Both the position numbers and the translations under genes were made by a program. A DNA stretch of 64,000 nt from Solirubrobacteraceae bacterium (GTDB taxonomy: Bacteria > Actinomycetota > Thermoleophilia > Solirubrobacterales > Solirubrobacteraceae): the NCBI GenBank assembly GCA_035536715.1, contig DATLNO010000077.1:9221-73220 (forward strand). The letters run 5' to 3'. Positions 34,300 to 52,107 of this stretch are shown here, one piece after another. The notes below the pieces were generated by a model, which saw only the letters and a list, made by a program, of their open reading frames with translations, was not told the origin of the DNA and made no database searches. The number at the start of each line of letters is the position of its first letter. Positions within the stretch are counted from its first letter, which is position 1.

Positions 34300-35223
34300 A
34301 TGCGGACCGGTGTGATCGTCCCCGTCCACGGCTGGCCCTCGCTGCTGGCCGAGACGCTCGACGGGATCCTCGCGCAGGACCCGCGGCCCGAGGTCGTGCT
34401 CGTCGTCGACGACGGGTCGACCGAGCCGGTCGCGCTGCTTCCCGACCACACGGGGCACTGCCGTGTCGTCCGCCACCCCGAGCGCCGCGGCCTGGCGTAC
34501 GCGCGTGCGACGGGTCTGGCGCAGCTCGAGGGCTGCGAGCTCGTCGCCTTCTGCGACGCAGATGACGTCTGGGAACCCGGCAAGCACGCTGCGCAGCTCG
34601 CGGCGCTCGCCGCTCATCCGAGGGCGGCGGCCTGCTTTGGCAGCGCGTCGATCGTCGGCCTCGACGGGCGCCCGACGGGTGAGCAGTGGGACGAGCTCGC
34701 GGCGGGCTGCCATACGGCGGACGCGCTTTTGCCGCTGCTCTACGAGCGCAACCCGCTCTGCGTCTCCAGCGTGCTGCTGCGGCGCGACGCGGTGGTCGAG
34801 GCAGGCGGTCTCGAGTTCGAGCTGCCGCGCGCCGAGGACTGGGATCTCTGGCTGCGCCTGCTCGCGCTTGGCCACGCGTTCGTGGTGGAGCCGGCCGCCA
34901 GGGTCCGCTACCGCCGCTCTCCGGGCGCGCTGTCGGGCGACATCGCCGGGCTCGCGAGCGCGCAGCTGCACGTGCACGCGGCGCATGCCGGGCTCGTCGA
35001 CGAGGTCGTCCGCCGCCGCGTCGAGGCCGCCGATCGCGTGGCGCATGCGCGTGGGCTCGTGCGCCGGCGCGAGTACGACGCGGCGCGTGAGGAGCTGCAG
35101 CGCGCGTTCGAGCTGCGCCCGCCCGATCGGAGCGAGCGCGCTCTTGCGGCGCTGCTGGCCGTCCCGGGGCTGCGGTCGGCGCTCGGTCGCCGCGATCCGT
35201 ACTCGGCGGGCGCGCGTCCCTAG
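34300..35223 (+). CDS. glycosyltransferase family 2 protein
   Basis: GVIVPVHGWPSLLAETLDGILAQD...VVDDGSTEP...FCDADD (GT-A, DxD). ATG at 34300. Confidence 0.75.
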   Translation: MRTGVIVPVHGWPSLLAETLDGILAQDPRPEVVLVVDDGSTEPVALLPDHTGHCRVVRHPERRGLAYARATGLAQLEGCELVAFCDADDVWEPGKHAAQLAALAAHPRAAACFGSASIVGLDGRPTGEQWDELAAGCHTADALLPLLYERNPLCVSSVLLRRDAVVEAGGLEFELPRAEDWDLWLRLLALGHAFVVEPAARVRYRRSPGALSGDIAGLASAQLHVHAAHAGLVDEVVRRRVEAADRVAHARGLVRRREYDAAREELQRAFELRPPDRSERALAALLAVPGLRSALGRRDPYSAGARP

Positions 35224-37283: not shown

Positions 37284-37370
37284 CAGTGGCCCGTGAGCCT
37301 AATCCACGCGCAGCGGCCGTCCTCCACATGATTCCGGTGCCCATGAGCGGCGCTGATAGCCTCGCAACCG

Positions 37371-38033
37371 ATGGCGCGATCGACCCTTGCGCGGCTGCGA
37401 GGCAGGCTGCGCCCCCGATCCAAGGGCGATGCCGAGATGGGCTACTGGAACGAGCGTGCGGCGATCGAGGGGGTGCTCGGCAACGGCCACTACGAGCGCG
37501 TCTTCACGGCCCAGTTCGGCCTCGAGACGCGGTTCTTCGACGGCAAGCGCGTGCTCGACGTCGGCTGCGGCCCGCGCGGCAGCCTCGAATGGGCGGCCGG
37601 CGCAGCGCAGCGGGTCGGCCTCGACCCGCTCGTCGACCGCTACCGCGAGCTCGGGATCGACCGCCACGCGATGCGGTACGTCGGCGCGCCCGCCGAGACA
37701 ATCCCGTTCGAGGACGCCTCGTTCGACATCGTCGCGAGCCTCAACTCGCTCGACCATGTCGACGACGTCGAGCGCGCCGTCGCCGAGATCACGCGCGTCG
37801 CGGCACCCGGCGCGACGTGGCTGCTGACCGTCGAGGTCGGGCACGCGCCGACGGCGACGGAGCCGCACTCACTCTCGTGGGACGTCGCCGAGGGCTTCGC
37901 GGGCTGGACGGTGCAGTGGTCGGCGCGCAACGGGCTGCGCGAGGACCACGACATCTACGCGAGCATCGACGAGGACCGGCCGCACACGGGCGACGGGCCG
38001 GGCCTCCTCCGCGCTCGGCTGACGAGGACCTAG
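37371..38033 (+). CDS. class I SAM-dependent methyltransferase
   Basis: VLDVGCGPRGSLEW (motif I) and DIVASLNSLDHV (motif II/III region). Confidence 0.75.
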   Translation: MARSTLARLRGRLRPRSKGDAEMGYWNERAAIEGVLGNGHYERVFTAQFGLETRFFDGKRVLDVGCGPRGSLEWAAGAAQRVGLDPLVDRYRELGIDRHAMRYVGAPAETIPFEDASFDIVASLNSLDHVDDVERAVAEITRVAAPGATWLLTVEVGHAPTATEPHSLSWDVAEGFAGWTVQWSARNGLREDHDIYASIDEDRPHTGDGPGLLRARLTRT

Positions 38034-38081
38034 TGGATCCGTCCGGAACTTCGGCCCGCAGAACTTGCGGACGGATCCACT
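38032..38081 (+). terminator. strong hairpin immediately after the methyltransferase stop (14-bp perfect stem)
   Basis: AGTGGATCCGTCCG (38032-38045) pairs with CGGACGGATCCACT (38068-38081). The 22-nt loop contains GAACTT twice. There is no U-tract. Confidence 0.4.
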
Positions 38082-38133
38082 GGTGAGCCTGACCGCTCGG
38101 TCGTGGCGCGCGGGTCTGCGCCGGTACCCGACA

Positions 38134-40206
38134 ATGCGGTCGATGGACGTCAGGACCGACGACCCTGCGCCGACGGAGCTCGATGAGGAGATCAGCTCCG
38201 GCGAGACCGGCCCGCCCGGTCGCGGCGAGCCTGACGGCGCGGGCGATATGACGCCGGGCGACGGCCCGCCGGGGCTGTCGCAGCGTTCCAACCGGATATG
38301 GGCATGGGTCGCGCTCGCCACCGCGAGCGTGTCCGCGGTCGCGCTGGCGCGGTACACCGGCGTCGTCGGCAAGGGCGGGCTGAACGAGGTCGCGCGCGCC
38401 GGCGCGGCGACCGTCGCGGTGTTCGGCATCGTTGGCTTCGGGCCGACGCGGCTGCTGCTGCCGCCCGGCCTGCGCCGCTTCGAGTTGCTGTGGGTGCTGC
38501 CGGTCGGCGCGGTCGCGACGGCGCTCGAGCTGACGCTCCTGACCTACGCGCACGTGCCATTCGATGCTGCGCTGCCGATCGTCCTGCTCGCCGGCGTGGC
38601 GCTCGCGGGGTTCGGCTGGCGGCGCGACCCGGGACTCCCCACGGCGCGCTCGGCACCGGCGGCCGGATTGGACGGGTTGGACGCGGCGTCATGGCGCACG
38701 CTGCTCGTGCCGCTGTACATCGCGCTGCTGATCGCGATGGTCGCGCTGCTGCCAATGTTCCGCGCGGGCTTTGCGACCGTCATCGGCAACGGCTCGGACG
38801 CGCACCTCGCGGTCGGCACCGGGATGTTCCTGCAGGAGAACCGCGCGGGCACGGTCAACATCGATGCGCCGGTCGACCACGTGCCGCTCGTGTGGAACTC
38901 CAAGCCGCCGATCTACCTCGCCTTCGGGGCCGTGGCGAAGGTCGCCGGGATGGAGCCGTACGCGGTGATCGCGACGATGGCGGGGGTGCTGCTGGCGCTC
39001 GCCGCGCTCGGCTTCTGGCTGCTGGCGCGCGAGCTGCTCGGCGCGGGCGCGTGGGCGGCGGGCGCCGCGATGGCGCTCATCGGCCTGAACCGGATGGCGC
39101 TGTTCACGACGATGCACCCGTACTTCAACCAGATCTGGGCCTTCATGGCGATGCCCTTCGCGATCGTGCTCGCATGGCACGTGGTGCGCCGCGGGACGTT
39201 CGGCGGCTGGATCATGCTGGGGTCGTTTCTCGCCCTGCTCGGGTTCGCCTATCCGCTGGCGCTGCCCGTGCCGCTCATGTCGATCGTCGTCTTCATCGCG
39301 TTCGAGCGCCGCCGGCGCGGGCTGCGGCTCATCTGGCTGCCGCGCCTGCGCAGCCGCAAGGACCTCATCTGGATCGTGCCGCTGGCGCTGCTTTTGCTGT
39401 CGGGCCCCGTCAAGGGCGTCTTCGAGAAGGCCGGCTCCGTGTTGAGCCTGCTCAACTACGGCGGCTCGCTGGCCAACTGGGGCGGCGACCTGCCGGGCTT
39501 CATCCCGGAGCGCTACTTCCTCGGCCTCGGTGACTCGGGCGGTGCGGCGATCGCGCTGGGGCTGCTGCTCGTCGGGCTTGTGATCGGGCTGCGCCACGCG
39601 CCGCGCGACGTGCGCTGGGGCCTGGGCATCGTGCTCGTGTTCGGCGTCCTGGCGGCGCTCTTCTTCCGCCCGCGCGAATACGGCTGGTACTTCCATTTCA
39701 AGGCGCTGGCGTTCGTCGCGCCGATCGGGATCGCGATCGCCGCCGTCGGGCTGGCGCGCTTCAGGCACGCCTGGGTCAGCGCGATCGCGCTGATCCTCGT
39801 GATCGGCGCGGCTCGCACGAGCGCCGCCGACGAGATCGGTCAGACGTTCGATCAGCTGCCCAAGAGCCTGCTCGAGCTGCGCTCGGTGGACGCGAGGCTG
39901 CCGCCCGACGCGTCGGTTCGGCTCGACATCCCGGCTGACGGGCGGATGCTGTGGGCCGGGATCCTGCTCGGCGGCCAGCCGCTGTGCTCGCAGAAGCCGG
40001 TGATGGAGACGAGCTATCCGCACGTTCCTGTCTCACGTGCCGCCGACTACGTGCTCGTCGACGACGACTGGCGCAAGCCGTTCGATGCCGTCGGCGACCC
40101 GGTCATGACACTCGACCGCTACCGGCTGTTCCGCCTCGAGCCGGGGCTGGCGGGTGGCGACCGCTGCTCGCGCGAGATGGTGCAGAACGTGGAGTCGCTG
40201 CAGTGA
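38134..40206 (+). CDS. polytopic membrane protein (second GT-C-like candidate)
   Basis: About 690 aa with an acidic/Pro-rich N-terminus, then at least 13 hydrophobic segments and a C-terminal soluble part. ATG at 38134 was chosen because the track start 38065 lies inside the upstream hairpin. Confidence 0.5.
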   Translation: MRSMDVRTDDPAPTELDEEISSGETGPPGRGEPDGAGDMTPGDGPPGLSQRSNRIWAWVALATASVSAVALARYTGVVGKGGLNEVARAGAATVAVFGIVGFGPTRLLLPPGLRRFELLWVLPVGAVATALELTLLTYAHVPFDAALPIVLLAGVALAGFGWRRDPGLPTARSAPAAGLDGLDAASWRTLLVPLYIALLIAMVALLPMFRAGFATVIGNGSDAHLAVGTGMFLQENRAGTVNIDAPVDHVPLVWNSKPPIYLAFGAVAKVAGMEPYAVIATMAGVLLALAALGFWLLARELLGAGAWAAGAAMALIGLNRMALFTTMHPYFNQIWAFMAMPFAIVLAWHVVRRGTFGGWIMLGSFLALLGFAYPLALPVPLMSIVVFIAFERRRRGLRLIWLPRLRSRKDLIWIVPLALLLLSGPVKGVFEKAGSVLSLLNYGGSLANWGGDLPGFIPERYFLGLGDSGGAAIALGLLLVGLVIGLRHAPRDVRWGLGIVLVFGVLAALFFRPREYGWYFHFKALAFVAPIGIAIAAVGLARFRHAWVSAIALILVIGAARTSAADEIGQTFDQLPKSLLELRSVDARLPPDASVRLDIPADGRMLWAGILLGGQPLCSQKPVMETSYPHVPVSRAADYVLVDDDWRKPFDAVGDPVMTLDRYRLFRLEPGLAGGDRCSREMVQNVESLQ

Positions 40207-40217
40207 GAATACGCGGC

Positions 40218-41477
40218 ATGCTGTTGTGCGCTCTCGCGATGCTGGCCGCTGCTGGCAGCGCGGCGCCGGCGTTCGCGCAGGAGCCGGCGACCGCGTTCGC
40301 CGCGGACTCGACGCAGATCGGCGTCATCAGCCTCCTGTTCTTCGGTGCCCAGGGCGGCGAGGTGCAGTACTACGAGCGCGTCAGTGATCGCCTGAAGGCG
40401 CTCGGCCGGGCGCGCGCCGCCCCAGGCGCGGTGACGACGCTGAAGGACGCCACGACCTGGTCGTGTGATCGCCTCGAGCGCCGCTTCGAGGCGCGCGCCG
40501 TCCTGCCCGACGGCAGCACCGCGACGGGCGCATACGGCGTGCGGACCGCGTCGTGCGCGCAGCGCTTCCGGGTCGAGGCGCCGCGTCGCGTCGCCGCGGG
40601 AAAGCTGGCCCGCGTCCGCGTGATCGACCGCTGGAACATCGGCGGCATCAAGCCGATGCTCTGCATCACGCCGCCGGCGGGCCGGCGGGAGTGCAGGACG
40701 CTGGCCTTCGCGCGGGCAGTCGCCGTCGCGACGCGCCGCTTCCGCGCCGAGCAGCGCGGGCGCTGGCGTGTCGAGCTACGGGTCCGCGATCACCGCGTGC
40801 GGCGCGACGTCGCCGTCGGCGGCGACACGACGGTCAGACAGGTCGTGCTGCCGAGCGTGCTCGCGACCGGAGACTCGACAATGCAGGGCATCGACAGCTA
40901 CCTGTCCGACGAGCTGGCCGACGACGCTGCGCTGCGCAGCGACATCCAGCTCGGCAGCGCGATCAGCCGCGGCGACTTCTGGGCGACGTACGCGGCGACG
41001 CAGACCAAGCGCCTGCACCAGCGCGTCAGCGTGATGTCGATCGGCGCGGCGTTCGACGGCTATCCGCTGACGCCGCCCGGCGGCGCTCCGGTCGAGTGCT
41101 GCGAGGAGCCGTGGGTTGCGCTGTACGCCGAGCGCGTCCGGGCGATCATGGGGACCTACCTGCGGCGCGGGCGCGGGCGCGTGTTCTGGCTGACGCCGCC
41201 GCTGCCTCGCGACCCGGTGCGGCTGAAGATCACGACCGCGATCACGTTGGCGATCGAGCGTGCCGCGACGGGACTTCTGGGCGTGAGGGTCGTCCGCGTC
41301 GACCAGCTCTTCGCGCCGGCAGGGGTCTACACGGAGGTCATCCGCTACCGCGGCCGCGACGTCCGCGTGCGCGATCCCGACGGCGTGCACCTCAACATCT
41401 CGGGCACCGCGATCATGGCCCAGCTGCTGGCCCCGCAGATCCGGGCGGCGCTGGCGCAGACGAAGCCCGCGGGCTGA
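40218..41477 (+). CDS. secreted protein with a C-terminal SGNH/GDSL hydrolase domain
   Basis: Signal peptide MLLCALAMLAAAGSAAPAFA. Block I is VLATGDSTMQG and block V is DPDGVHLN (DxxH). I did not recognise the N-terminal 220 aa or so. Confidence 0.6.
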   Translation: MLLCALAMLAAAGSAAPAFAQEPATAFAADSTQIGVISLLFFGAQGGEVQYYERVSDRLKALGRARAAPGAVTTLKDATTWSCDRLERRFEARAVLPDGSTATGAYGVRTASCAQRFRVEAPRRVAAGKLARVRVIDRWNIGGIKPMLCITPPAGRRECRTLAFARAVAVATRRFRAEQRGRWRVELRVRDHRVRRDVAVGGDTTVRQVVLPSVLATGDSTMQGIDSYLSDELADDAALRSDIQLGSAISRGDFWATYAATQTKRLHQRVSVMSIGAAFDGYPLTPPGGAPVECCEEPWVALYAERVRAIMGTYLRRGRGRVFWLTPPLPRDPVRLKITTAITLAIERAATGLLGVRVVRVDQLFAPAGVYTEVIRYRGRDVRVRDPDGVHLNISGTAIMAQLLAPQIRAALAQTKPAG

Positions 41478-41543
41478 CGGGCGGTCCTGGGTGGTTGGCT
41501 CGCTGCGTTCGTGCGGTGCCCCGCATGCGTACGGTTGGGTCGC

Positions 41544-41645: not shown

Positions 41646-41832
41646 CCCTCGCCGCACGGGCCTGGGGCCACCCGTCCTTCACCGATGTTGTTCGCAAGCG
41701 CGAGCACCCGCCCGGACGCACCGGCTCGACCCTGGTGCCCAACGCCCACGGCCTGCGCCGGCGCCGTGAGACAATCCGTCGCGTCTTGGAGGATGCATCG
41801 ACAACGCAAGCAGAGCCGGCCGTGAGGCGCCT

Positions 41833-42462
41833 GTGATCGAGGAGCTGGTGCCCGCGACCGTCACCGTGGTCGCGACGCGCGCCGACCTCGGAACCGAGTT
41901 GTTCGCGGATGAGCTGCGCGCGCTGGGATCCGCGGTCCATTCGCGTCGCCGCGAGTTCGAGACGGGTCGCGCATGCGCCCGCCGAGCGCTCGCCGAACTC
42001 GGTCTGCGCGAAGCTGTCGCGGTCGGGAGCGGGACGCGCGGCGAGCCGCTCTGGCCGGCCGGCGTGGTCGGCAGCATCACGCACTGCGCGCGCTACAGGG
42101 CCTGCGCCGTCGCACGCGACCACGACGTGCTCGCGGTCGGCATCGACGCCGAGCTCGACGCCCCGCTGCCTGCCGGCGTGCTCGCGACGATCGCGAGCCG
42201 CGTCGAACAGCGCGCGCTGGCGGCGCACGGCGCCGGCGCCTGCTGGGACCGCGTGCTGTTCAGCGCCAAGGAGGCGGTCTTCAAGGCGTGGTATCCGCTG
42301 ACCGGGCAGGCGCTCGCGTTCGAGGACGCCGACGTGCGGATCGACCCCGACCACGGCACGTTCACGGCGCGGCTGCTCGTCGACGGCCCGCTGCGCGAGC
42401 TGCACGGGCGCTGGGCTGTTGCCGGCGGGATCGTCGCGACCAGCGTGGCGGTGGCGCGATGA
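41833..42462 (+). CDS. 4'-phosphopantetheinyl transferase (Sfp/EntD type)
   Basis: GSITHC, GIDAE and FSAKEAVFKAW motifs. GTG start. Its stop overlaps the PKS ATG (ATGA at 42459-42462). Confidence 0.8.
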   Translation: MIEELVPATVTVVATRADLGTELFADELRALGSAVHSRRREFETGRACARRALAELGLREAVAVGSGTRGEPLWPAGVVGSITHCARYRACAVARDHDVLAVGIDAELDAPLPAGVLATIASRVEQRALAAHGAGACWDRVLFSAKEAVFKAWYPLTGQALAFEDADVRIDPDHGTFTARLLVDGPLRELHGRWAVAGGIVATSVAVAR

Positions 42463-45400
42463 GACAGCGAACCGTGGCGCTGCCCTGGGTCCTCTCCGCG
42501 CAAGATGAGCCCGCGCTGCGCGAGCAGGCGACCCGGCTGAAGGCACACCTCGAGGCGCACCCGCAGCTGCACACCGCCGACGTCGGCTGGTCGCTCGTCG
42601 CCGGCGGCGCCCATCTTGAGCGTCGCGCGGTCGCGATCGGGGAGGACCGCAAGGCGTTGCTCGGCGGGCTCGAGGCAATCGCATCGGGCGCGCCCGCGCA
42701 GGGCGTCGCACGCGGTATCGCGCACGCAACGACCGCGCACCGGCTTGCCTTCGTCTTCCCCGGCCAGGGCTCGCAGTGGCCGGGCATGGCGCTCGAGCTC
42801 GCGGCGCAGTCGCCGCTGTTCGCCGCCAGGTTGCAGGCCTGCGAGGACGCGCTCTCCCCGCACATCGACTGGAAGCTCGACGACGTCCTGCGCGCCGCGC
42901 CCGACGACGAGCTCTGGGACCGCTCGGACATCGTCCAGCCGTCGCTGTTCTGCGTGATGGTCTCGCTCGCCACCCTGTGGCGCTCCTTCGGCGTCCGTCC
43001 CGACGCGGTCGTCGGCCACTCGCTCGGGGAGATCTCGGCCGCCTGTGTCGCGGGGATCCTGTCGCTCGAGGATGCCGCTCGCGTCGCGGCGCTGACGAGC
43101 CGCGCCCTGCACGAGCTCGGCGGGGACGACGGGATGGTCCTCGTCGACCTCGGCGCCGAGCAGCTCGAGGAACGGACCGCGCAGATCGACGGCCGGCTGA
43201 CGCTCGCCGCGTTCAACGGTCCCCACGCGATCGTCGTCTCCGGCGAGCAGCCCGCGCTCGACGAGCTGCTGGCCGGCTGCGAGGCCGACGGGATCCGGGC
43301 GCGCCGGATTCGCGTGGACGGCACCTCTTCGGTCGCGCACTCGAGCCAGATCGAGGCGATCCGCGAGCGCCTCGCGCGCGATCTCGCGCCCGTCGAGCCG
43401 CGCCCGAGCGGCGTGACGTTCTACTCGTCGGTCACCGGCGAGCCGATCGACTACACCGAGCTCGGCCCCGAGTATTGGTACCGCAGCCTGCGTGAGCCGG
43501 TGCGCTTCGAGCAGGCGACGGCCGCGCTCGTGCGCGACGGCGCGACGGCCTTCGTCGAGTCCAGCCCGCACCCGGTGCTGACGTTCGCGGTGGAGGGGAC
43601 GATCGAGTCGGCTGCAGCGGCGGGCACGGGATTGGCCACGCCGATCGGCGATGTACCTCACGCGGTGATCGGGTCGCTGCGCCGCGACGGCGGGCTCGCA
43701 CGCTTTCTCGTCTCGGTCGGGGAGGCGCACGCCACCGGGATCGAGCTTGACTGGACGCCCGCCTTCGCCGCGGCGCGGCCGACGCGCATCGACCTGCCGC
43801 TGCGCGAAACCGCTTCGGCGGCGGTCGCCGATGTGCCGGTCGCGGCGGCCGCGGACTCGCTGCTGGCCGACGACCAGCGCACCGACGCCGGACTGCTCGC
43901 CCTCGTGCGCGAGCACGCCGCCGCGGTGCTCGCGCTCGGGTCTGCCGACGCCATCGCGCCGCGCCGCGCGTTCAAGGAAATGGGTATGGAGTCGCTGCAG
44001 GGCGTCGAGCTGCGCAACCGCCTCGCCCAGGTGACCGGGCTGCGCCTGCCGTCGACCCTCGTCTACGACCATCCCACGCCGGCCGCCGTCGCCGACCGGC
44101 TCGCCACGATCCTGTCGGGGGCGCAGCGCGCCTCCCGAGCGACCGTCCGCCTGAGCGCCCACCACGACGAGCCGATCGCGATCGTCGGGATGAGCTGCCG
44201 CTACCCCGGCGGCGTGCGGTCCGCGCAGGACCTCTGGGATCTCGTCGCTGCCGGCACCGACGCGATCGGCCCGTTCCCCGAGGACCGCGGCTGGGACCTC
44301 GACGGCCTCTACGACGAAGATCCAGATGTAACCGGCACGAGCTACGTGCGCAGCGGCGGCTTTCTCTACGACGCCCCGGACTTCGACGCGGCGTTCTTCC
44401 AGATCGCGCCCCGCGAGGCGTCGGTGATGGACCCCCAGCAGCGGATCGTGCTCGAGACGTCGTGGGCGGCGCTCGAGGACGCCGCCATCGACCCCGAGCG
44501 GCTCGCGGGCTCTGCGGCCGGCGTCTTCCTCGGCGTCAGCTCACAGGACTACGGCTCGTTCCTGCCGGGCTTCGCGACCGAGTACGAGGGCCTGAGGATG
44601 ACCGGGTCGCTGACGAGCGTCGTCTCGGGCCGCGTTTCCTACGCGCTCGGGCTGGAAGGCCCCGGGGTCACCGTCGACACGGCCTGCTCCTCCTCGCTCG
44701 TGGCGCTGCACCTCGCCTGCCAGTCGCTGCGCACTGGCGAGTGCTCGCTCGCGCTTGCCGGCGGCGTCACCGTGCTCTCGTCGCCGGGGATGTTCATCGA
44801 GTTCAGCCGCCAGCGCGGCCTCGCGCCGGACGGGCGCAGCAAGGCGTTCGCCGCGAGCGCCGACGGCGCCAGCTGGGCCGAGGGCGCGGGCGTGCTCGTC
44901 ATCGAGCGGCTGTCGGACGCGCGCCGCAACGGCCATCGCGTGCTCGGCCTCGTGCGCGGCACGGCGACCAATCAGGACGGCGCGAGCAACGGGCTGTCGG
45001 CGCCCAGCGGGCCGTCCCAGGAGCAGGTCATCCGCCAGGCGCTCGCGAACGCCGGCGTGTCGCCGGCCGACGTGGACGCCGTCGAGGCGCACGGGACGGG
45101 CACGACGCTCGGTGATCCGATCGAGGCCGGAGCGCTGCTTGCGACCTACGGCCAGGACCGCGTGGACGGGCCGCTCTGGCTGGGCTCGATCAAGTCGAAC
45201 ATCGGCCACTCGCATGCGGCGGCGGGCGTCGCCGGCGTGATCAAGATGCTCATGGCGATGCGCGCCGGCGTCCTGCCGCGCACCCTGCACGTCGACGCGC
45301 CGACGCCGCACGCCGACTGGTCAGGGGGGCGGGTCGAGCTCCTGACCGAGCAGCGCGACTGGCCGCGGGCGGGCCATCCAGTCCGTCCTCGGCGCGCGGG

Positions 45401-48400
45401 CGTCTCGGGCTTCGGGATCAGCGGGACGAACGCGCACGTCGTGCTCGAAGAGGCGCCGGCGGCGGAGTCCCACACCACGGCAGCGGACCTTCCCGCGGTG
45501 CCGCTCATCCTGTCGGCGAAGTCGCGGGGCGCGCTGCGGGAGCAGGCTCGGGCGCTGCACGAGCACATGGTGCGGCGGCCGCAGGTCGTGCCGGCCGACG
45601 TCGGCTGGTCGCTCGCGACCGGGCGTGCGCGCTTCGCGCACCGCGCCGCGGTCGTCGGCACCGACCGCGCGCGGCTGCTCGCGGGCCTCGACGCCGTCGC
45701 GAGTGGGATGCCCGCCGACGGCGTCGCCGCCGGCAACGCCCGCGACGCCGCGAGGGTCGCGTTCGTGTTCCCGGGCCAGGGCTCGCAGTGGCTCGGCATG
45801 GCGCTCGACCTGTGGGACACCGCCGACGCGTTCGGGGCGCAGATGCAGGCTTGTGCCGACGCGCTGCGCCCGCACACCGGCTGGGAGCTGCGCGACGTCA
45901 TCGCGGGAGCGCCCGGGGCACCGGCGCTCGAGCGCATGGACGTCGTCCAGCCGGCGTCGTTTGCCGTGTTCGTCTCGCTCGCCGCGCTGTGGCGCTCCTA
46001 CGGTGTCGAGCCGGCGGTCGTCGTCGGCCACTCGCAGGGCGAGATCGCCGCCGCGTACGTCGCCGGCGCCCTGACATTGCAGGACGCCGCGCGCGTCACG
46101 GCGCTGCGCAGCGCCGCGCTCGTCGACCTCGCCGGCGCGGGCGGGATGATGTCGGTCTTCCTGCCCGCGAGCGAGGTGCTCGAGCGGATCGAGCGCTTCG
46201 ACGGCCGGATCTCGCTGGCCTCCTACAACAGCCCGCGCTCGACGGTCGTCGCGGGCGAGCCGCAGGCGCTGCGCGAGCTGCTCGCGGAGTGCGAGGCCGC
46301 CGGCGCGCGCGCGCGGATGATCGCCGTCGACTACGCGTCGCACTCCCAGCAGATCGAGTCGATCCGCGCGCGCCTGCTCGAGGACCTGCGGCCGATCGCG
46401 CCGGTCAGCACGCAGATCCCGCTCTACTCGACGACGACCGCCGGGCTGATCGACGGCACCCGGCTCGACGCCGAGCACTGGTATCGCAACCTGCGCGAGC
46501 CGGTCCGCTTCGAGCAGGCCACGCGTGCGCTCGTCGACGACGGCGTGACGGCGTTCATCGAATCGAGCCCGCACCCGGTCCTGACGTGGGCCGTGCAGGA
46601 GACCGTCGACGATGCGGCGACCGATGGCGGGCGCGATCGGATCGCCGTCGTCGGCTCGCTGCGCCGCGACGAGGGCACGCTCGCGTGCTTTCTCTCGTCC
46701 GCGGGGGAAGCCTTCGCCGGCGGTGTCGAGGTCGACTGGGAGGCCGCGTTCGCCGGCGCCGGTGCGCGCCGCGTCGGCCTGCCGACCTACCCCTTCCAGC
46801 GCACCCGCTTCTGGTTCGAGCAGCGCGCGGGAGCAGGCGGGGGAGACGGGTCGCTCGCTGCGGCCGGCATCGGCGCGGCCGAGCACCCGCTGCTCGGCGC
46901 GGCGGTCGAGCTCGCCGGCGGCGACGGCTGCCTGCTGACCGGCCGCATCGCCTCGTCCGGCCATTCCTGGCTCAACGATCACGAGCTGTTCGAGCAGGTC
47001 ACGCTCGCGCAGTCGGCCTTCGCCGAGATGGCGCTGCGAGCGGGCGCCGAGGTTGGCTGCGACACCGTGGAGCAGCTGACCCTGGAGGCGCCGCTCGTGC
47101 TGCCCGCGGTGGGCGGCGTGCGGCTGCAGGTGACCGTGAGCGGCGCGGACGACAGCGGCCGCCGGACGCTCGCGATGCACGCCCGGCCCGACGCGGACGG
47201 ACTGGCCGACGCCGCCTGGGTGCGCCACGCGACGGGCACGCTCAGCGAGGCCGCGACCGCCGACCACGAACCGCTGCCCGCGCAGTGGCCGCCTTCCGGT
47301 GCGGTCGCGCTCGACCTCGACGAGCTCTACGACCGCCTCGCCGCCAACGGGCGCACGTACGGCGCGGAGCTCCAGGTGGTGCGCGCCTGGCGGCTCGGCG
47401 ACGAGCTGTTCAGCGAGGTCGGGCTTTCCGAGAAGGAGCTCGTCGACGGGGCGCGCTTCGCGATCCACCCGGTGCTCCTCGACGCGGCGCTGCATCCGGC
47501 GATCGCGGCGCGCGACCCGGCGAGTGTCTCGCCGGCGCTCGAGTGCAACGGCCTGCGCGTGCAGCAGCCCGGCACGCTCGCGCTGCGTGTGCGTCTCTCG
47601 CCCGGGGAAGGCGACACCCTGCGGTTGACGGCGACGGACGAGCGCGGGGCGCTCGCCCTGACCATCGACGCCGTCGCCATGGCGCCGCCGCAGGACGGCC
47701 GCGCGGCAGCCGGTCGCGACGCGGCCCTCGAGGCGCTCTACCGCATCCGCTGGACGCCGCTCGCCGCGTCCGCCTCCTCGAGCGGCGGCGCGACGGCGCA
47801 GCTCGACGCCGTCGACATCGTCGCCCCACGGACCGTCACCGAGGCGCTCGCGCTCGTGCAGGGCTGGCTCGTCGAGGACCGTCCGCCGGACGCTCGCCTC
47901 GCCGTGCTCGTGCCCGGCGCGGGCGCGGTACTCGACGGCGAGTCGCCCGACCCCGAGGCGTCGGCGATCCGCGGCCTGCTGCGCAGCGTGCAGTCCGAGC
48001 ATCCTGACCGCGTCGTCACGCTCGACGTACACGAGGCCAGTCCCCGGGAGATCGCCGCCGCGGTCGCGACGGGCGCGGCCGAGGTCGCGCTGCGCGATGG
48101 CGCGGTCCTCGTGCGCCGGCTCGCGCGCGCGCCTGCCGACACGGCGCCATCCGGCACCTGGCGGCTCGCGCCCGAGCGCGCCGGTGCGCTCGTCGCGGCG
48201 GCGCCCGACCACGGCGACGGCGACCGTCCGCTGCGCAGCGGCGAGGTGCGGTTGGCCGTCCGCGCCGCCGGCGTGAACTTCCGCGACGTGCTGATCGCGA
48301 TCGGCGTCCACGGGGCTCAGCTCGGCGCCGAGGCCGCCGGCGTCATCGCGGAGGTCGGGCCCGACGTGGACCGCCTGCGTCCCGGCGATCGCGTCATGGG

Positions 48401-51137
48401 GATCGTCCCCGGCGCCTTCGGTCCGCTGGCCGTCGCCGACGCCCGCACGCTCGTTCCGATCCCCGCCGAGTGGTCGTTCGCGCAGGCGGCCACCGTCCCG
48501 GTCGCCCACGCCACGGCATACCTCGCGCTGCACGACATCGCGCGGCTGCAGCCGGGGGAGCGCGTGCTGATCCACGCCGCCGCGGGCGGCGTCGGGATGG
48601 CCGCCGTCGCGCTCGCTCAGCGGACCGGAGCGGAGGTCTTCGCGACGGCGAGCCCGGCGAAGTGGGACGCGCTTGGAGCGCTCGGGATCGACGGCGAGCA
48701 TCTCGCCAGCTCGCGCACGACGGACTTCGCCGCGAAGTTCGAGCGGGTCGACGTCGTCCTGAACTGCCTGACGGGCGAGCTGACCGATGCCTCGCTCGCG
48801 ATCCTGGCGCACGGTGGGCGCTTCGTCGAGCTTGGCAGCGCCGACGTTCGGGATCCCGCGGCGATCGCCGCCGCATTCCCTGGCGCGACGTACGAGACCG
48901 TCGACCTCTTCGGCACGAAGCCGAAATCGCTCGGCAAGATCCTGCGTGCGGCCGCCGCGCAGGCCCAGCCGCTGCCGATCACGGCCTGGGACGTGCGCGA
49001 CGGCTCACAGGCGCTGGCGTTCATGAGCCAGGCCCGCCACATCGGCAAGGTCGTGCTGACCGTGCCGCACGCGCTCAATCCCGAGGGGACGGTGCTCGTC
49101 ACCGGTGCAACGGGCGGCCTCGGCGCCGTCGTCGCCGAGCACCTCGCGCGCGAGCACGGCGCCCGCCGCCTGCTGCTTGTCAGCCGCCGCGGTCCGGACG
49201 CGCCGGGGGTCGACTCCCTGTGCGAGCGCCTGGGTCAGCTCGGCTGCGAGGCAACCGTCGTCGCCTGCGACGTCGGAGACCGCGCCGCGCTCGCCGCGCT
49301 GCTCGAGACGATCGACACGGGCAACCCGCTGACGGCGATCGTCCACGCCGCGGGAACGCTCGACAACGGCATGGTCGAGTCGATCGACGAGGCGCGCCTT
49401 GCTGGCGTCATGCGCCCGAAGGCGACCGCCGCTCGCTGGCTCGACGAGCTCACGCGCGGCGAGGACCTCGCGGCGTTCGTGCTGTTCTCGTCGGTAGCGG
49501 CGACGTTCAGTCACCCCGGTCAGGGCAACTACGCCGCCGCAAACGCCTACCTCGACGCGCTTGCCCAGCAGCGCCGCACCAATGGGTTGCCCGCGACCGC
49601 TGTCGCCTGGGGACTGTGGGGCACGGGCAGCGGGATGTCGACGCGCCTGAGCAAGGAGGACATCGAGGTGCTGGCGGCCGACACGGGTCAGCGCGAGTTG
49701 CCCGTCGCGCAGGCGCTGGCGCTGCTCGACGTCGCCATCGGCCATCGTGAGGCGCTGCTCGTCGCCACGACGCTCGACCACGCATCGCTGCGCGCGCAGG
49801 CGCGGTCGGGCGTGCTGCCGGCGCTGCTGAGCGACCTCGTGCGCGCAACCAAGCGGACCACGGCCCGCGGGGGCGCTGCTGCTCGCGCGGGCGCGACCGG
49901 CGGCTCGCTGGCACAGCAGCTCGCCGCTGCCGCACCGCAGCAGCGCGACGAGCTCGTGCTCGAGCTCGTCCGCGCCCAGGCCGCCGCCGTGCTCGGTCAC
50001 GCGTCGGGAGGCGACGTGCCGCCCGACCGCCCGTTCAAGGAGCTCGGCTTCGACTCGCTCGGGTCGGTCGTGCTGCGCAACCGCCTCGGGCAGATCACCG
50101 GCCTGCGCCTGCCGTCGACGCTTGTCTTCGATCACCCGACGCCGCTGGCGATGGCGGCCTTCATGCGCGCGCTGGCCGAGCAGGACGAGCACGCCCAGGA
50201 GGGCGCGCAACCCACGGCGCCGGTCACCGTGCCGGCTTCCGAGCCGCTCCCCGCGATCGGGATGGCGCTGCTCGCCGAGCCGATCCGCCAGGAGGTCGCG
50301 CCGAGCGCCAACGGCCACGGCCCGCACGCGTCGTTGCCGGCCGGTGCGGCGCACGACGGGTCCCACGTCGCCGTAGGCGGCTACCGTGGCGCCGTGCTCA
50401 GCTCACTCGCCGGCGCCGTGCGGACCCTGCGCTTGCGCGCCTGGATCCTGGCGACGCGGGCACGCCTTGCGCGGCTGGGTTGCACGTTCGTCGTCGAGAT
50501 CGACGGGACGCCGCGCTTCGACGAGCTGCCGCGGATCGTGACCGACGCCGTCGGCGCGGGCGGCGGCTCGCTGACGATCAGGATCGGTCGTGGGTGCCGC
50601 TTCGGCCGCGGGCTGACGCTCGACCTCTGGACGCACGCCGACAGTGTCCTGGAGATCGGCGACCGCTGCCAGTTCCAGGACCGCATTCGCCTGCAGCCGT
50701 GGGGCGGCGCGATCCGCTTCGGCGCGCAGGTGCGCGTGCGCGACGGCGCCGAGCTGAAGTCCAAGGGCGAGCTGCTCGTCGGCGCCGACTCGTTCATCGG
50801 GCGCAACACGGCCGTGCACTGCCACGAGCGCATCGAGTTCGCCGATCACGTGAACCTCGCCGAGGGCGTGAACGTCATGGACTCCGACCACACGCACGAC
50901 GGCAGCGATACGTACGTCGCGCGTCAGAAGATCGTGTCGGCGCCGGTCGTGGTGCAGAGCAACGTCTTCGTCGGGACCAACGCGCTGATCCTGCGCGGCT
51001 CCCACGTCGGGCGCAACGTGATGATCGCGACCGGCGCGGTGCTCACGGGCGGCGAGTATCCGGAGTGCTATCTGCTGGCGGGGGCGCCGGCGCAGCCGCT
51101 GCGGCCGCTGGAGCCCGACGACCCCATACCGTCCTGA
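42459..51137 (+). CDS. type I polyketide synthase: AT-ACP loading didomain + KS-AT-DH-ER-KR-ACP + C-terminal hexapeptide-repeat acyltransferase domain
   Basis: Single open frame of 2892 aa. The motifs are listed under the domain features below. ATG at 42459 was chosen rather than track start 41973, whose first 162 codons overlap the PPTase gene. Confidence 0.9.
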   Translation: MRQRTVALPWVLSAQDEPALREQATRLKAHLEAHPQLHTADVGWSLVAGGAHLERRAVAIGEDRKALLGGLEAIASGAPAQGVARGIAHATTAHRLAFVFPGQGSQWPGMALELAAQSPLFAARLQACEDALSPHIDWKLDDVLRAAPDDELWDRSDIVQPSLFCVMVSLATLWRSFGVRPDAVVGHSLGEISAACVAGILSLEDAARVAALTSRALHELGGDDGMVLVDLGAEQLEERTAQIDGRLTLAAFNGPHAIVVSGEQPALDELLAGCEADGIRARRIRVDGTSSVAHSSQIEAIRERLARDLAPVEPRPSGVTFYSSVTGEPIDYTELGPEYWYRSLREPVRFEQATAALVRDGATAFVESSPHPVLTFAVEGTIESAAAAGTGLATPIGDVPHAVIGSLRRDGGLARFLVSVGEAHATGIELDWTPAFAAARPTRIDLPLRETASAAVADVPVAAAADSLLADDQRTDAGLLALVREHAAAVLALGSADAIAPRRAFKEMGMESLQGVELRNRLAQVTGLRLPSTLVYDHPTPAAVADRLATILSGAQRASRATVRLSAHHDEPIAIVGMSCRYPGGVRSAQDLWDLVAAGTDAIGPFPEDRGWDLDGLYDEDPDVTGTSYVRSGGFLYDAPDFDAAFFQIAPREASVMDPQQRIVLETSWAALEDAAIDPERLAGSAAGVFLGVSSQDYGSFLPGFATEYEGLRMTGSLTSVVSGRVSYALGLEGPGVTVDTACSSSLVALHLACQSLRTGECSLALAGGVTVLSSPGMFIEFSRQRGLAPDGRSKAFAASADGASWAEGAGVLVIERLSDARRNGHRVLGLVRGTATNQDGASNGLSAPSGPSQEQVIRQALANAGVSPADVDAVEAHGTGTTLGDPIEAGALLATYGQDRVDGPLWLGSIKSNIGHSHAAAGVAGVIKMLMAMRAGVLPRTLHVDAPTPHADWSGGRVELLTEQRDWPRAGHPVRPRRAGVSGFGISGTNAHVVLEEAPAAESHTTAADLPAVPLILSAKSRGALREQARALHEHMVRRPQVVPADVGWSLATGRARFAHRAAVVGTDRARLLAGLDAVASGMPADGVAAGNARDAARVAFVFPGQGSQWLGMALDLWDTADAFGAQMQACADALRPHTGWELRDVIAGAPGAPALERMDVVQPASFAVFVSLAALWRSYGVEPAVVVGHSQGEIAAAYVAGALTLQDAARVTALRSAALVDLAGAGGMMSVFLPASEVLERIERFDGRISLASYNSPRSTVVAGEPQALRELLAECEAAGARARMIAVDYASHSQQIESIRARLLEDLRPIAPVSTQIPLYSTTTAGLIDGTRLDAEHWYRNLREPVRFEQATRALVDDGVTAFIESSPHPVLTWAVQETVDDAATDGGRDRIAVVGSLRRDEGTLACFLSSAGEAFAGGVEVDWEAAFAGAGARRVGLPTYPFQRTRFWFEQRAGAGGGDGSLAAAGIGAAEHPLLGAAVELAGGDGCLLTGRIASSGHSWLNDHELFEQVTLAQSAFAEMALRAGAEVGCDTVEQLTLEAPLVLPAVGGVRLQVTVSGADDSGRRTLAMHARPDADGLADAAWVRHATGTLSEAATADHEPLPAQWPPSGAVALDLDELYDRLAANGRTYGAELQVVRAWRLGDELFSEVGLSEKELVDGARFAIHPVLLDAALHPAIAARDPASVSPALECNGLRVQQPGTLALRVRLSPGEGDTLRLTATDERGALALTIDAVAMAPPQDGRAAAGRDAALEALYRIRWTPLAASASSSGGATAQLDAVDIVAPRTVTEALALVQGWLVEDRPPDARLAVLVPGAGAVLDGESPDPEASAIRGLLRSVQSEHPDRVVTLDVHEASPREIAAAVATGAAEVALRDGAVLVRRLARAPADTAPSGTWRLAPERAGALVAAAPDHGDGDRPLRSGEVRLAVRAAGVNFRDVLIAIGVHGAQLGAEAAGVIAEVGPDVDRLRPGDRVMGIVPGAFGPLAVADARTLVPIPAEWSFAQAATVPVAHATAYLALHDIARLQPGERVLIHAAAGGVGMAAVALAQRTGAEVFATASPAKWDALGALGIDGEHLASSRTTDFAAKFERVDVVLNCLTGELTDASLAILAHGGRFVELGSADVRDPAAIAAAFPGATYETVDLFGTKPKSLGKILRAAAAQAQPLPITAWDVRDGSQALAFMSQARHIGKVVLTVPHALNPEGTVLVTGATGGLGAVVAEHLAREHGARRLLLVSRRGPDAPGVDSLCERLGQLGCEATVVACDVGDRAALAALLETIDTGNPLTAIVHAAGTLDNGMVESIDEARLAGVMRPKATAARWLDELTRGEDLAAFVLFSSVAATFSHPGQGNYAAANAYLDALAQQRRTNGLPATAVAWGLWGTGSGMSTRLSKEDIEVLAADTGQRELPVAQALALLDVAIGHREALLVATTLDHASLRAQARSGVLPALLSDLVRATKRTTARGGAAARAGATGGSLAQQLAAAAPQQRDELVLELVRAQAAAVLGHASGGDVPPDRPFKELGFDSLGSVVLRNRLGQITGLRLPSTLVFDHPTPLAMAAFMRALAEQDEHAQEGAQPTAPVTVPASEPLPAIGMALLAEPIRQEVAPSANGHGPHASLPAGAAHDGSHVAVGGYRGAVLSSLAGAVRTLRLRAWILATRARLARLGCTFVVEIDGTPRFDELPRIVTDAVGAGGGSLTIRIGRGCRFGRGLTLDLWTHADSVLEIGDRCQFQDRIRLQPWGGAIRFGAQVRVRDGAELKSKGELLVGADSFIGRNTAVHCHERIEFADHVNLAEGVNVMDSDHTHDGSDTYVARQKIVSAPVVVQSNVFVGTNALILRGSHVGRNVMIATGAVLTGGEYPECYLLAGAPAQPLRPLEPDDPIPS
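42744..43610 (+). other. PKS domain: loading acyltransferase (AT1)
   Basis: FVFPGQGSQWPGM, and GHSLGE (Ser codon about 43020). The specificity position reads SVAHS rather than HAFH or YASH. It is preceded by a KS-AT-linker-like segment of about 95 aa but no KS. Confidence 0.75.
43890..44115 (+). other. PKS domain: ACP1
   Basis: FKEMGMESLQGVELRNRL (Ser codon 43991-43993). Confidence 0.7.
44166..45455 (+). other. PKS domain: ketosynthase
   Basis: PIAIVGMSCRYPGG, DTACSSS (Cys codon 44684-44686), EAHGTGT, and NIGHS. It ends at GTNAHVVLEEAP. Confidence 0.85.
45755..46610 (+). other. PKS domain: extender acyltransferase (AT2), methylmalonyl-type signature
   Basis: FVFPGQGSQWLGM, GHSQGE, and VDYASHS (YASH motif). 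Confidence 0.8.
46880..47690 (+). other. PKS domain: dehydratase (divergent active-site motif)
   Basis: HPLLG start, then WLNDHELFEQVTLAQSAF where the consensus is HxxxGxxxxP. The His is kept; the Gly and Pro are replaced. Confidence 0.6.
48155..49070 (+). other. PKS domain: enoylreductase
   Basis: VRAAGVNFRDVLIAIG and HAAAGGVGMAAVALAQ (NADPH site). Confidence 0.8.
49085..49650 (+). other. PKS domain: ketoreductase (catalytic subdomain)
   Basis: GTVLVTGATGGLG, LDN at the LDD position, and GQGNYAAANAYLD. The structural psi-KR region lies at about 47700-48150. Confidence 0.8.
49950..50175 (+). other. PKS domain: ACP2
   Basis: FKELGFDSLGSVVLRNRL (Ser codon 50055-50057). Confidence 0.75.
50385..51134 (+). 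other. PKS C-terminal domain: left-handed beta-helix (hexapeptide-repeat) O-acyltransferase-like, in the place of a TE
   Basis: IGDRCQFQDRIRLQP.., VGADSFIGRNTAVHCHERIEFADHVNLAEGVNVMDSDHTHD, PVVVQSNVFVGTNALILRGSHVGRNVMIATGAVLTGG, LLAGAPAQPL. This is the LacA/WcaF/NodL-type pattern with a candidate catalytic His in SDHTH. Confidence 0.6.
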
Positions 51138-52107
51138 CCGGGGTCAGCAGCGGTGGCGGCCCGCCCGGCAGCCCCAGGCCGCCGAGGATCCCGCGCACCT
51201 CGCGCGGGTCCTCGCGGCGGGCGAGGCACAGCGCCGCGCCGGCGAGCGCGTCGGCGAGCAGCGCGACGGTGAGCCCGGCCCGCTGCGGCCGGCTCCAATG
51301 CAGCGCCGCGTAGCGGCGCAGCGACGCGACCCACTCGGCCCGCATCCGCGCCGGGTCGGCGCGCTGGGCGCGACCGACGCTCGTCCCGTAGCCGTGTGCT
51401 GCGGTCGCGGCGGGCACGATCTCGATGCCGCGGCCGGCGTCGGTCAGGCGGCGACAGAGGTCGCCGTCGTTGAAGAACAGCGCAAAGCGCTCGTCCAGCG
51501 GACGCGGCTGCAGATCACTGCGCCGCGCCATGATGCAGGCCGCGGCCGGGCAGAACACGGCGACGGGGTCGCTCGGCGGGCCGCCGGCCCAGAGGTCCTC
51601 GTAGCGGCGCGTCGCCGCCGCGCGGCCGCCGCGCAGCGCCGCGTCGGCGCGCCGGCCCACGGTCGTGTAGGCCCACAGCACCCCGGCGAGGCCGATGTCG
51701 CGGCGCGCGTGCAACTGCGGCGTGCCGTCGGGATCGTGCAGCAGCGCGGCGGCGATCGCGACCTGCGGCCGCGTGGCGAGGTGGTCGCGCAGCGCGCGGG
51801 CGCAGCCGGCGTCCATCACGCAGTCGGGGTTGAGGAGCAGCACGTGCTCGCCGGCCGAGGCGTCGAACGCCGCGTTGACCGCTGCGGCGAAGCCCGTGTT
51901 GGAGCCCATCTGCAGCAGCTGCACGCCGTCGGCCGCCCGCGCCGCGACGCGCGCGACGGTGTCGTCGCGTGACGCGTTGTCGGCGACGGTCACGTCCACC
52001 GTCAGATCCTCGCCGGCCTGCGCCAGGGCCGCGTCGAGGCACGCTGCGATCTCGTCGCCGTGCTCGTAGGTGACGATCAGGACCGATAAGCCGGGTGCGC
52101 TGGGCAC
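51043..52107 (-). CDS. glycosyltransferase family 2 protein (rhamnosyltransferase-like)
   Basis: LSVLIVTYEHGDEIAACLDA..., ADNASRDDT, NTGFAAAVNA and LLLNPDCV. GTG start. Its 3' end overlaps the PKS 3' end by 95 nt (convergent). Confidence 0.75.
   Translation of the reverse strand: MPSAPGLSVLIVTYEHGDEIAACLDAALAQAGEDLTVDVTVADNASRDDTVARVAARAADGVQLLQMGSNTGFAAAVNAAFDASAGEHVLLLNPDCVMDAGCARALRDHLATRPQVAIAAALLHDPDGTPQLHARRDIGLAGVLWAYTTVGRRADAALRGGRAAATRRYEDLWAGGPPSDPVAVFCPAAACIMARRSDLQPRPLDERFALFFNDGDLCRRLTDAGRGIEIVPAATAAHGYGTSVGRAQRADPARMRAEWVASLRRYAALHWSRPQRAGLTVALLADALAGAALCLARREDPREVRGILGGLGLPGGPPPLLTPVRTVWGRRAPAAAAAAPAPPPADSTPDTRRP

Follow-up and report, generated by a model that had tools for sequence, protein, structure and literature searches.

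Type I polyketide synthases (PKSs) that lack a thioesterase (TE) can be off-loaded by acyltransferases, the described cases being MAS with PapA5, LovF with LovD, the fungal cAT domain and the ketoacyl-ACP synthase (KAS) III-like ChlB6. The transferases concerned have condensation-like, beta-lactamase-like, carnitine-acyltransferase or thiolase folds, they are mostly discrete proteins, and to our knowledge none of them is a left-handed beta-helix (LbH). Here we examine a stretch of 64,000 nucleotides from a Solirubrobacteraceae bacterium (assembly GCA_035536715.1, contig DATLNO010000077.1, positions 9,221 to 73,220 of the forward strand), called the window below and numbered from its first letter, in which a type I PKS runs in frame through its terminal acyl carrier protein (ACP) and a flexible linker into an LbH acyltransferase domain. 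The resulting PKS-LbH protein resembles the off-loading systems just named in being a TE-less reducing PKS, and its proposed chemistry would likewise be a direct transfer of the acyl chain from ACP to a hydroxyl. LovF (KS-AT-DH-MT-ER-KR-ACP) also makes a short 2-methyl-branched acyl chain, as this PKS is predicted to do.

The precedents for the terminal domain itself lie elsewhere. LpxA and LpxD of lipid A synthesis are LbH acyltransferases that pass an acyl chain from an acyl-ACP thioester to a sugar hydroxyl or amine, with a His as general base. They offer a mechanistic precedent, LbH-catalyzed acyl transfer from a phosphopantetheinyl carrier protein, but they draw on a discrete ACP of type II fatty acid synthesis that bears long 3-hydroxyacyl chains, they are not fused to a synthase, and their sequence likeness to the PKS-LbH terminus is weak. 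The O-acetyltransferases of the MAT/GAT/WbbJ/WcaF type (3ect/3nz2, 1kqa, 1ocx; also OatWY 2wlc and NeuO 3jqy) share the LbH fold and acylate sugar hydroxyls; the C-terminal coils and the DSDH loop of PKS-LbH align with their catalytic-His motif. These enzymes are free-standing and use acetyl-coenzyme A (acetyl-CoA), whereas the PKS-LbH domain is tethered to an ACP, lacks the Mac cap and has an Arg-rich helix of its own. In the nonribosomal peptide synthetases (NRPSs) of the Pls/PosA type, models of the terminal domain that follows the peptidyl carrier protein (PCP) show beta-helices with the packing of trimeric sugar-nucleotide acyltransferases (PMC10522769). That organization (A-PCP-terminal domain, TIGR02353) is similar in that a non-TE domain responsible for acyl transfer and release comes last, after a carrier protein; it differs in belonging to an NRPS, in a terminal domain of about 730 amino acids (aa) with three beta-helices and six transmembrane (TM) helices, and in using an amine of the growing polymer as acceptor. 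In the algae Karenia brevis and Chrysophaeum taylorii, LbH regions have been noted, without a function, at the C-termini of PKSs or close to them (PMC5725682, PMC10366177). There too an LbH region accompanies ACP domains in the last part of a multidomain PKS; these are, however, eukaryotic transcripts or genes, and the best 150 matches of our exhaustive LbH search contained no algal-type protein.

Full-text literature searches returned no described bacterial PKS-LbH protein and no LbH-mediated off-loading of a PKS. A preliminary description of the window had taken this off-loading logic to be undescribed, which in these searches holds for bacteria and must be qualified by the algal LbH regions, by LpxA/LpxD and by Pls/PosA. 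Release of PKS products by acyl transfer is thus known, and so is carrier-protein-dependent LbH chemistry; a conserved LbH end on a bacterial type I PKS is, by these searches, new.

A Modular PKS with a Beta-Helix Terminus

The window has a G+C content of 70-75%. From 41973 onwards, one reading frame stays open until the stop codon 51135-51137 and covers the whole PKS-LbH gene, along which the following features were found:

42459..51137, forward strand: PKS-LbH, a single open reading frame (ORF) of 2892 aa beginning with ATG 42459; identical to GenBank HVF77732.1
42480..43793, forward strand: loading acyltransferase (AT), GHSLGE (Pfam and motifs)
43884..44102, forward strand: loading ACP, GMESL (Pfam PP-binding in two stretches)
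44169..45293, forward strand: ketosynthase (KS), Cys-His-His triad intact (DTACSS, HGTG, NIGH; Pfam and motifs)
45762..46730, forward strand: extender AT, GHSQGE...YASH, the methylmalonyl-type signature (Pfam and motifs)
46884..47678, forward strand: dehydratase (DH; Pfam PKS_DH_N 2e-24, PS-DH 1.3e-10)
48237..49058, forward strand: enoylreductase (ER), LIHAAAGGVG (Pfam and motif)
49086..49622, forward strand: ketoreductase (KR), YAAAN (Pfam KR 1.2e-56)
49965..50162, forward strand: terminal ACP (ACP2), GFDSL (translation ELGFDSLGS), Ser codon 50055-50057 (Pfam and motif)
50193..50393, forward strand: Pro/Ala-rich linker, 67 aa, about 69% P/A/G/S/T/E/Q
50385..51134, forward strand: LbH (hexapeptide-repeat) acyltransferase domain, 250 aa (Pfam, NCBIfam, PDB profile match and AlphaFold2 (AF2) model), with the stop at 51135-51137
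50388..50474, forward strand: Arg-rich N-terminal helix of the LbH domain (AF2 helix, residues 2-30; predicted local distance difference test score (pLDDT) 80-95)
50880..50900, forward strand: DSDHTHD loop, matched by HMM alignment to the catalytic-His motif of MAT-like acetyltransferases (3ect)

Pfam orders the protein as AT-ACP-KS-AT-DH-ER-KR-ACP, followed by a Hexapep match at aa 2830-2864, and the catalytic motifs of all the PKS domains are intact. The KS triad, the AT GHSxG and ACP DSL motifs and the accompanying DH, ER and KR are those of a cis-AT type I modular PKS, whose closest relatives in the PDB are the DEBS and Lsd14 modules (1316 bits, against 882 bits for MAS). In the loading AT, a Thr stands at the position of the carboxylate-binding Arg that the extender AT keeps, and on account of this replacement its assignment as a starter-unit AT fits. 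At the place of the YASH/HAFH of extender ATs, the loading AT reads VDGTSSVAHS, with a 3-aa insertion. The GenBank name of HVF77732.1, "SDR family NAD(P)-dependent oxidoreductase," reveals neither the PKS nor its LbH end.

A Pfam scan of the protein found no TE, reductase (R) or condensation (C) domain, and its GHSxG motifs are confined to the two ATs. Likewise, no TE, reductase or condensation-type gene is among the ORFs scanned in the part of the window from about 16.6 to 63 kb. On all these points the preliminary description was accurate: it had read the frame as uninterrupted from 42459 to 51137, had placed after ACP2 (LGFDSLGS) a Pro/Ala linker of about 70 aa and then an LbH tail of about 245 aa with an SDHTH block, and had seen no TE, reductase or condensation domain in the protein. 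The block is present in the translation (DSDHTHDG...VFVGTNALILRGSHVGRNVMIATGAVL), the NCBIfam affinities of the tail are of the WcaF/MAT type, and the neighbouring ORFs that were scanned add neither a TE nor an R gene.

Fold of the Terminal Domain

Profile searches and structure prediction both give a beta-helix. With Pfam Hexapep (PF00132) the isolated tail reaches 30.8 bits, above the cutoff of 27, and a full-length scan gives 22.1 bits, below it. The best NCBIfam matches of the tail are WbbJ (3e-13), WcaF (4e-11) and MAT (1e-9), all far short of the respective equivalog cutoffs (49.7 vs 243, 42.9 vs 192 and 38.5 vs 314). LpxD (24.0 vs 242.5; E 1.6e-5) and LpxA (15.6 vs 231; E 7e-3) also stay below their cutoffs, as does TIGR02353 of Pls/PosA (E 7e-4, 18 bits vs 423), and a Pfam scan of the tail did not find the Mac capping motif PF12464. 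When the LbH family profile is compared with the PDB, it matches acetyltransferases of the MAT/GAT type, 3ect being the best at 3.5e-17, with 1kqa, 1ocx and OatWY also among the matches; in the alignment the DSDH falls on the catalytic T-A-S-H of 3ect, which makes His169 of the domain (window 50889-50891) the equivalent of the MAT His.

The AF2 monomer model (pLDDT 79.4, predicted template-modelling score 0.70) begins with a long N-terminal helix and continues in short, regular strands, a single beta-helix in 250 aa with no TM segment. All of the best 50 Foldseek matches in the PDB are LbH proteins (probability about 1.0), including AntD, NeuO, OatWY, MAT, GAT, QdtC and gamma-carbonic anhydrases. 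Among the top ones, AntD, NeuO and OatWY are acylators of sugars, and the AntD crystal holds 3-hydroxybutyryl-CoA. The predicted LbH fold is, on these comparisons, a sound assignment; membership of a named subfamily is not, and the domain is best described as a relative of the MAT, GAT, WbbJ and WcaF enzymes and not as one of them.

A Genuine and Conserved Fusion

The G+C content of third codon positions (GC3) in the PKS frame remains at 0.90-1.0 across the ACP2-LbH junction, with no switch of frame. A search with the LbH part alone returned 114 relatives, among which the fragments P0001, P0004, P0006 and P0007 (73-92% identical) run upstream into a homologous ACP and linker. When the GTDB species representatives were scanned with an alignment of 11 sequences, 23 loci were obtained, all of them from Thermoleophilia. 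Sixteen of these (L004-L019), with an LbH identity of at least 69%, carry the domain in one frame with the ACP Ser motif and with a PKS that measures up to 3561 aa; in the remaining seven of the 23 loci, where the identity is 46-54%, the LbH is a stand-alone gene of about 240 aa. L040, from a metagenome-assembled genome (MAG) of Thermoleophilia, is a seventeenth further fused example. The in-frame ACP-linker-LbH end of the window protein thus recurs in 17 further MAGs and in about eight metagenome fragments, with no stop between ACP2 and the LbH domain in the orthologues; of these fragments, P0115-P0117 and P0119, which show KR-ACP-LbH, came from an exhaustive HMMER search. Two variants, P0117 and L040:11186-20116, are AT-DH-KR-ACP-LbH and have no ER, so PKSs whose chains differ in reduction share this LbH terminus.

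The orthologous linkers vary from 51 to 106 aa, keep a content of about 70% P/A/G/S/T/E/Q and are in frame every time; AF2 predicts the linker to be disordered (pLDDT 29-39). An island, S-x-N-G-x-G, is conserved in mid-linker, and R-[RG]-Y-[RGV]-G directly precedes the LbH helix. Nei-Gojobori comparisons per domain with the closest orthologues gave the LbH a nonsynonymous divergence (dN) of 0.06-0.08 and a dN/dS of 0.21-0.27, the same values as for the KS, and gave the linker a near-neutral dN/dS of 0.55-1.18, without stop or frameshift. It is because this near-neutral linker stays unbroken ahead of an LbH constrained like the KS that we regard the fusion as genuinely translated; the ACP-linker-LbH fusion is confirmed and is no artefact.

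Three assemblies called for caution. In L001-L003 (ENA ERZ25039516 / ERZ25039530) the PKS-LbH is collinear and ridden with frameshifts, and the gene calls, "stand-alone" LbHs included, are unreliable. P0008, P0009 and P0010 were rejected as separate stand-alone genes, since their contigs (L001-L003) change reading frame at intervals of a few hundred bases. Although an in-frame stop occurs in L003, the conserved R-Y-R-G sits between that stop and the called start.

Origin of the LbH Domain

The PKS-fused LbHs group as one clade in a simple neighbour-joining tree. The topology fits a single capture of the LbH by a PKS, kept since then, and a fused clade derived from stand-alone LbHs. The nearest of these stand-alone relatives (46-59% identity) have no PKS partner. 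In every case examined they belong to an operon with the order PALP (CysM-like)-ThiS-(Cupin_2)-LbH-(response regulator)-LigD, as in L020, L022-L025, L030 (for example L030:491-5147) and L032-L038, in which stops and starts overlap. A stand-alone LbH of this kind might be a putative Ser or homoserine O-acyltransferase that feeds a sulfur-carrier pathway. The ORF of about 90 aa upstream of it was considered as a discrete ACP, an idea that is refuted: it encodes a ThiS-family carrier, follows PALP and ends in ...AVAGG. The stand-alone hexapeptide gene of L039 was also rejected as a member of the family (no tblastn match at 1e-5) and is apparently of another hexapeptide type.

Fifty-five positions conserved at 90% or more are common to the fused and stand-alone clades, which are separated by only four fixed differences (A19, S62, C95 and G161). 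The Gly at 161, eight residues before the DSDHTHD loop, is replaced by Arg in 88% of the stand-alone proteins. Both clades also keep D166, S167, D168, D172, N193 and N199. Among 108 family members, 11, one fused subclade included, have Arg or Lys in place of His169, while His171 is invariant among all fused proteins; the stand-alone sisters have the reverse pattern, with His169 invariant and H, N or F at position 171. To judge from these alignments, the catalytic base may have shifted.

The Conserved Cassette and Its Glycan Context

A phosphopantetheinyl transferase (PPTase) gene, the PKS-LbH gene and a family 2 glycosyltransferase (GT2) gene form a conserved cassette, near which lies a further glycosyltransferase gene:

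35220..37283, reverse strand: GT-C membrane glycosyltransferase of the PMT_2 type, 14 TM-like segments
41833..42462, forward strand: Sfp-type 4'-phosphopantetheinyl transferase (Pfam 4PPT_N 3.2e-23, ACPS 2.1e-13), its stop overlapping the PKS start (ATGA)
51043..52107, reverse strand: GT2 glycosyltransferase HVF77733.1 (Pfam Glycos_transf_2 1.5e-17), convergent with the PKS

The PPTase gene is kept upstream of the PKS in 13 related loci. The GT2 gene adjoins PKS-LbH in 18 of 19 fused-type loci (73-85% identity) and does so in L040 as well; it either converges on the PKS gene and abuts it or points the same way about 720-755 nt downstream (L001, L017, L019), so that it has been retained through an inversion, and the genes farther downstream vary. 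In the window the 3' ends of the two ORFs overlap by 95 nt (51043-51137). The GT2 ORF ends in about 24 aa of low-complexity Ala/Pro, outside the homologue alignment, which leaves the true GT2 end uncertain.

The wider setting of the cassette also involves glycans. On a 3.2-Mb contig without the PKS (L039), orthologues of the PMT_2 protein (62% over the full length) and of the GT2 (73%) lie only 57 nt apart (L039:7917-10942). In the window about 14 kb, comprising the genes for a methyltransferase, a 12-TM protein, a DUF459 protein, the PPTase and PKS-LbH, part the two. Compared with L039, the PKS cassette of the window (35220-52107) is placed as if it had been inserted into a glycan locus. The exhaustive search further recovered proteins in which a GT2 is fused directly to an LbH (P0212, P0235 and P0248). 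In their GT2 halves they share 44-48% identity with the window GT2 (E 2e-82, 4e-80 and 2e-47), compared with E 2e-4 when the other GT2 of the window is used as a control, and the GT2-LbH genes (L027:1977-3656, L028:2029-3804) sit in surface-polysaccharide loci with Wzz, Wzm-Wzt and Wzy. The GT2 family is about 10 times as abundant as PKS-LbH, and the GT2 homology search returned close unfused orthologues only. The link of PKS-LbH to glycans is, then, real but indirect.

Proposed Release of the Polyketide Chain

What the terminal domain does for the PKS can be argued from its position, its conservation and its relatives. It follows the terminal ACP, the canonical place of a release domain; no other release enzyme was found in the protein or in the scanned part of the window; its constraint equals that of the KS and the fusion persists across PKS variants; and LpxA/LpxD, AntD and the terminal domain of Pls/PosA provide precedents. 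For these reasons the LbH may act in cis as a terminal acyltransferase and off-load what the PKS makes, a proposal to which we give about an even chance. With somewhat greater reserve, we suggest that the domain could represent a new class of off-loading catalyst, in which a tethered acyl-S-ACP replaces acyl-CoA as donor and a methyl-branched chain is esterified to an envelope or lipid-linked glycan.

The donor, acceptor and chemistry that we infer would be as follows. The loading AT-ACP would prime the synthase with a non-carboxylated acyl starter, which the single KS-AT(methylmalonyl)-DH-ER-KR module would extend and reduce fully to a saturated, 2-methyl-branched acyl-S-ACP2. The DEBS-like affinity and the loading didomain suggest that the module acts once, and one round would yield a short acyl chain; such a short branched acyl would suit a pocket of the MAT/WbbJ kind, in parallel with the logic of LovF and LovD. 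The flexible linker of about 70 aa would allow the phosphopantetheine arm of ACP2 to bring the thioester into the pantetheine groove of the LbH, which is normally occupied by acyl-CoA. There a His of the DSDHTHD loop would deprotonate the hydroxyl (or amine) of the acceptor, whose attack on the thioester would form an ester (or amide) and set holo-ACP free. The likeliest acceptor would be a sugar of a glycoconjugate intermediate made by the adjacent GT2 in the GT2/PMT_2 envelope-glycan locus, and the outcome a polyketide-acylated cell-envelope glycan or glycolipid. A sugar is favoured by this GT2/PMT_2 locus and a small metabolite by the ancestry of the LbH; from such comparative evidence, the sugar is a plausible acceptor.

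Several observations weigh against this proposal. The nearest solved LbH relatives use acetyl-CoA and not acyl-ACP. The structural matches are weak by E-value (Foldseek best E 1.2e-3, none at or below 1e-3; best TM-score 0.47/0.55, for OatWY), and the AF2 model of ACP, linker and LbH together (pLDDT 61) was too poor for docking. LbH enzymes form trimers, with their active sites where the subunits meet, and PKS modules form dimers. With 55 positions in common and only four fixed differences between the clades, the domain gives no clear sign of having been remodelled for a new donor, and in a monophyletic fused subclade (L013-L016, L040, P0006, P0007, P0009, P0115) His169 has become Arg. As to the acceptor, the closest LbH relatives are found in PALP-ThiS operons and not in glycan loci, the LbH halves of the GT2-LbH fusions are just 25-30% identical to that of the window, and the GT2 of L039 is present without a PKS. 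The preliminary description had proposed the LbH as the chain-release catalyst and its acceptor as probably a sugar. The first proposal draws support from position, KS-level selection, the lack of another release enzyme and the glycan context, and is weakened by conserved residues that are nearly those of the stand-alone sisters and by the His-to-Arg subclade; the second gains from the conserved GT2 neighbour and the GT2/PMT_2 locus and loses from the ThiS/PALP ancestry.

Some of the same evidence would suit a different role, that of a fused tailoring O-acetyltransferase which uses acetyl-CoA or a short acyl-CoA on the intermediate or on a glycoconjugate, the chain being released by another enzyme or by hydrolysis. 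The strongest point in its favour is that the conserved residues are almost identical to those of stand-alone sisters without an ACP partner; the closest solved or curated relatives (MAT, GAT, WbbJ, WcaF) depend on acetyl-CoA, the GT2-LbH fusions and the stand-alone LbHs of polysaccharide loci presumably acetylate glycans, and fusions of same-pathway enzymes without substrate channelling are common. Against such a role, neither the cassette nor the scanned part of the window yielded an alternative release enzyme, which is the most serious objection to it. Nor would one expect a passenger domain to be constrained like a KS. The LbH hangs on a flexible tether after the terminal ACP, in the position of a release domain, and keeps that place across PKS variants. 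We consider tailoring less likely than release by the LbH, and it is the main rival. If the LbH does release the chain, the acceptor could instead be a small hydroxyl or amine metabolite, for example a hydroxy-amino acid, with the ester or amide used later by enzymes of the locus. The constant association of the nearest stand-alone LbHs (46-59%) with PALP(CysM-like)-ThiS-(Cupin)-LbH operons and the 55 conserved positions common to both clades speak for this, but the fused clade has entirely lost the PALP-ThiS context and has gained a GT2 neighbour in a GT2/PMT_2 locus, and we judge a small-metabolite acceptor improbable.

Two further explanations were considered. A non-catalytic LbH might serve in oligomerization, scaffolding or docking to a membrane or partner, in the manner of the gamma-carbonic-anhydrase-like subunits of respiratory complex I. 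The Arg in place of the canonical His in one fused subclade, the many Foldseek/PDB matches to structural gamma-carbonic-anhydrase-like subunits and an Arg-rich N-terminal helix that could be an interaction surface would all agree with this. It is hard to reconcile, however, with the conservation of D166, S167, D168, D172, N193 and N199 in both clades, with an invariant His171 in the fused proteins and with a dN as low as that of the KS; the change of His to Arg is, moreover, a single event. A purely structural domain is accordingly very improbable. Least credible of all is that the fusion is an artefact of a missed stop or frameshift, or functionally two proteins with the LbH made mainly from an internal GTG at 50394. 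Stand-alone LbH homologues start at the Arg-rich helix, exactly at the position of this in-frame GTG (alignment and start scan), a TAG occurs at 50374 in the +1 frame, 20 nt before it, and gene callers split the homologues of L001-L003, among which L003 has its in-frame stop. These three are frameshift-ridden assemblies, whereas one frame is kept, across indels in the linker, in 17 independent MAGs and in several Illumina-type fragments; the GC3 of the PKS frame exceeds 0.9 through the linker, and no obvious ribosome-binding site precedes 50394. Some additional initiation at 50394, beside the fusion product, may occur.

If release by the LbH domain is real, the known set of PKS terminators (TE, R, C/PapA5, LovD, cAT and KAS III-like) would gain a new fold. 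A small, portable, tethered domain would couple polyketide synthesis to hydroxyl acylation, which would be attractive for the engineering of acylated sugars, and the envelopes of Solirubrobacteraceae and other Thermoleophilia would be expected to contain unrecognized methyl-branched acyl glycoconjugates. These are abundant soil bacteria that have barely been cultured and whose lipids and glycans are largely uncharacterized. Clusters of the PKS-LbH type have probably been overlooked, both through misnaming in GenBank and through Pfam-based domain names that carry no release function. Because stand-alone, GT2-fused and PKS-fused LbHs all occur in nature, the hypothesis of a switch in donor is directly testable.

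Other Genes of the Locus

In L001, L017 and L019 the LbH end and the co-directional GT2 are separated by a small additional gene; that of L001 (L001:11012-11425) is an ORF of 137 aa with a weak Hexapep match. The small hexapeptide genes of L001 and L027 were considered as a common third component and rejected, as they share only a generic hexapeptide match of 36 aa.

Upstream of the PPTase, the window encodes a GNAT protein, a second GT2, the PMT_2/GT-C protein, a methyltransferase, a 12-TM protein and a DUF459 protein, the last three being:

37371..38033, forward strand: S-adenosylmethionine-dependent methyltransferase (Pfam Methyltransf_11 1.5e-16)
38065..40206, forward strand: 12-TM-like membrane protein, 713 aa, of no Pfam or NCBIfam family
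39951..41477, forward strand: DUF459 (SGNH-like) protein (Pfam DUF459 4.4e-22), one TM-like segment

The 12-TM protein belongs to a family with at least 391 matches at E<=1e-10, hypothetical proteins distributed across the Solirubrobacteraceae. Together with the DUF459 protein it might form a two-component system of glycan O-acylation. Nothing was found to support the pair as an alternative release route of the PatA/PatB or DltB/DltD kind, the 12-TM protein having no Pfam domain and being far commoner than the cassette. The DUF459 protein weakly resembles PatB (NCBIfam 9e-6), and its true start is probably downstream of 40206.

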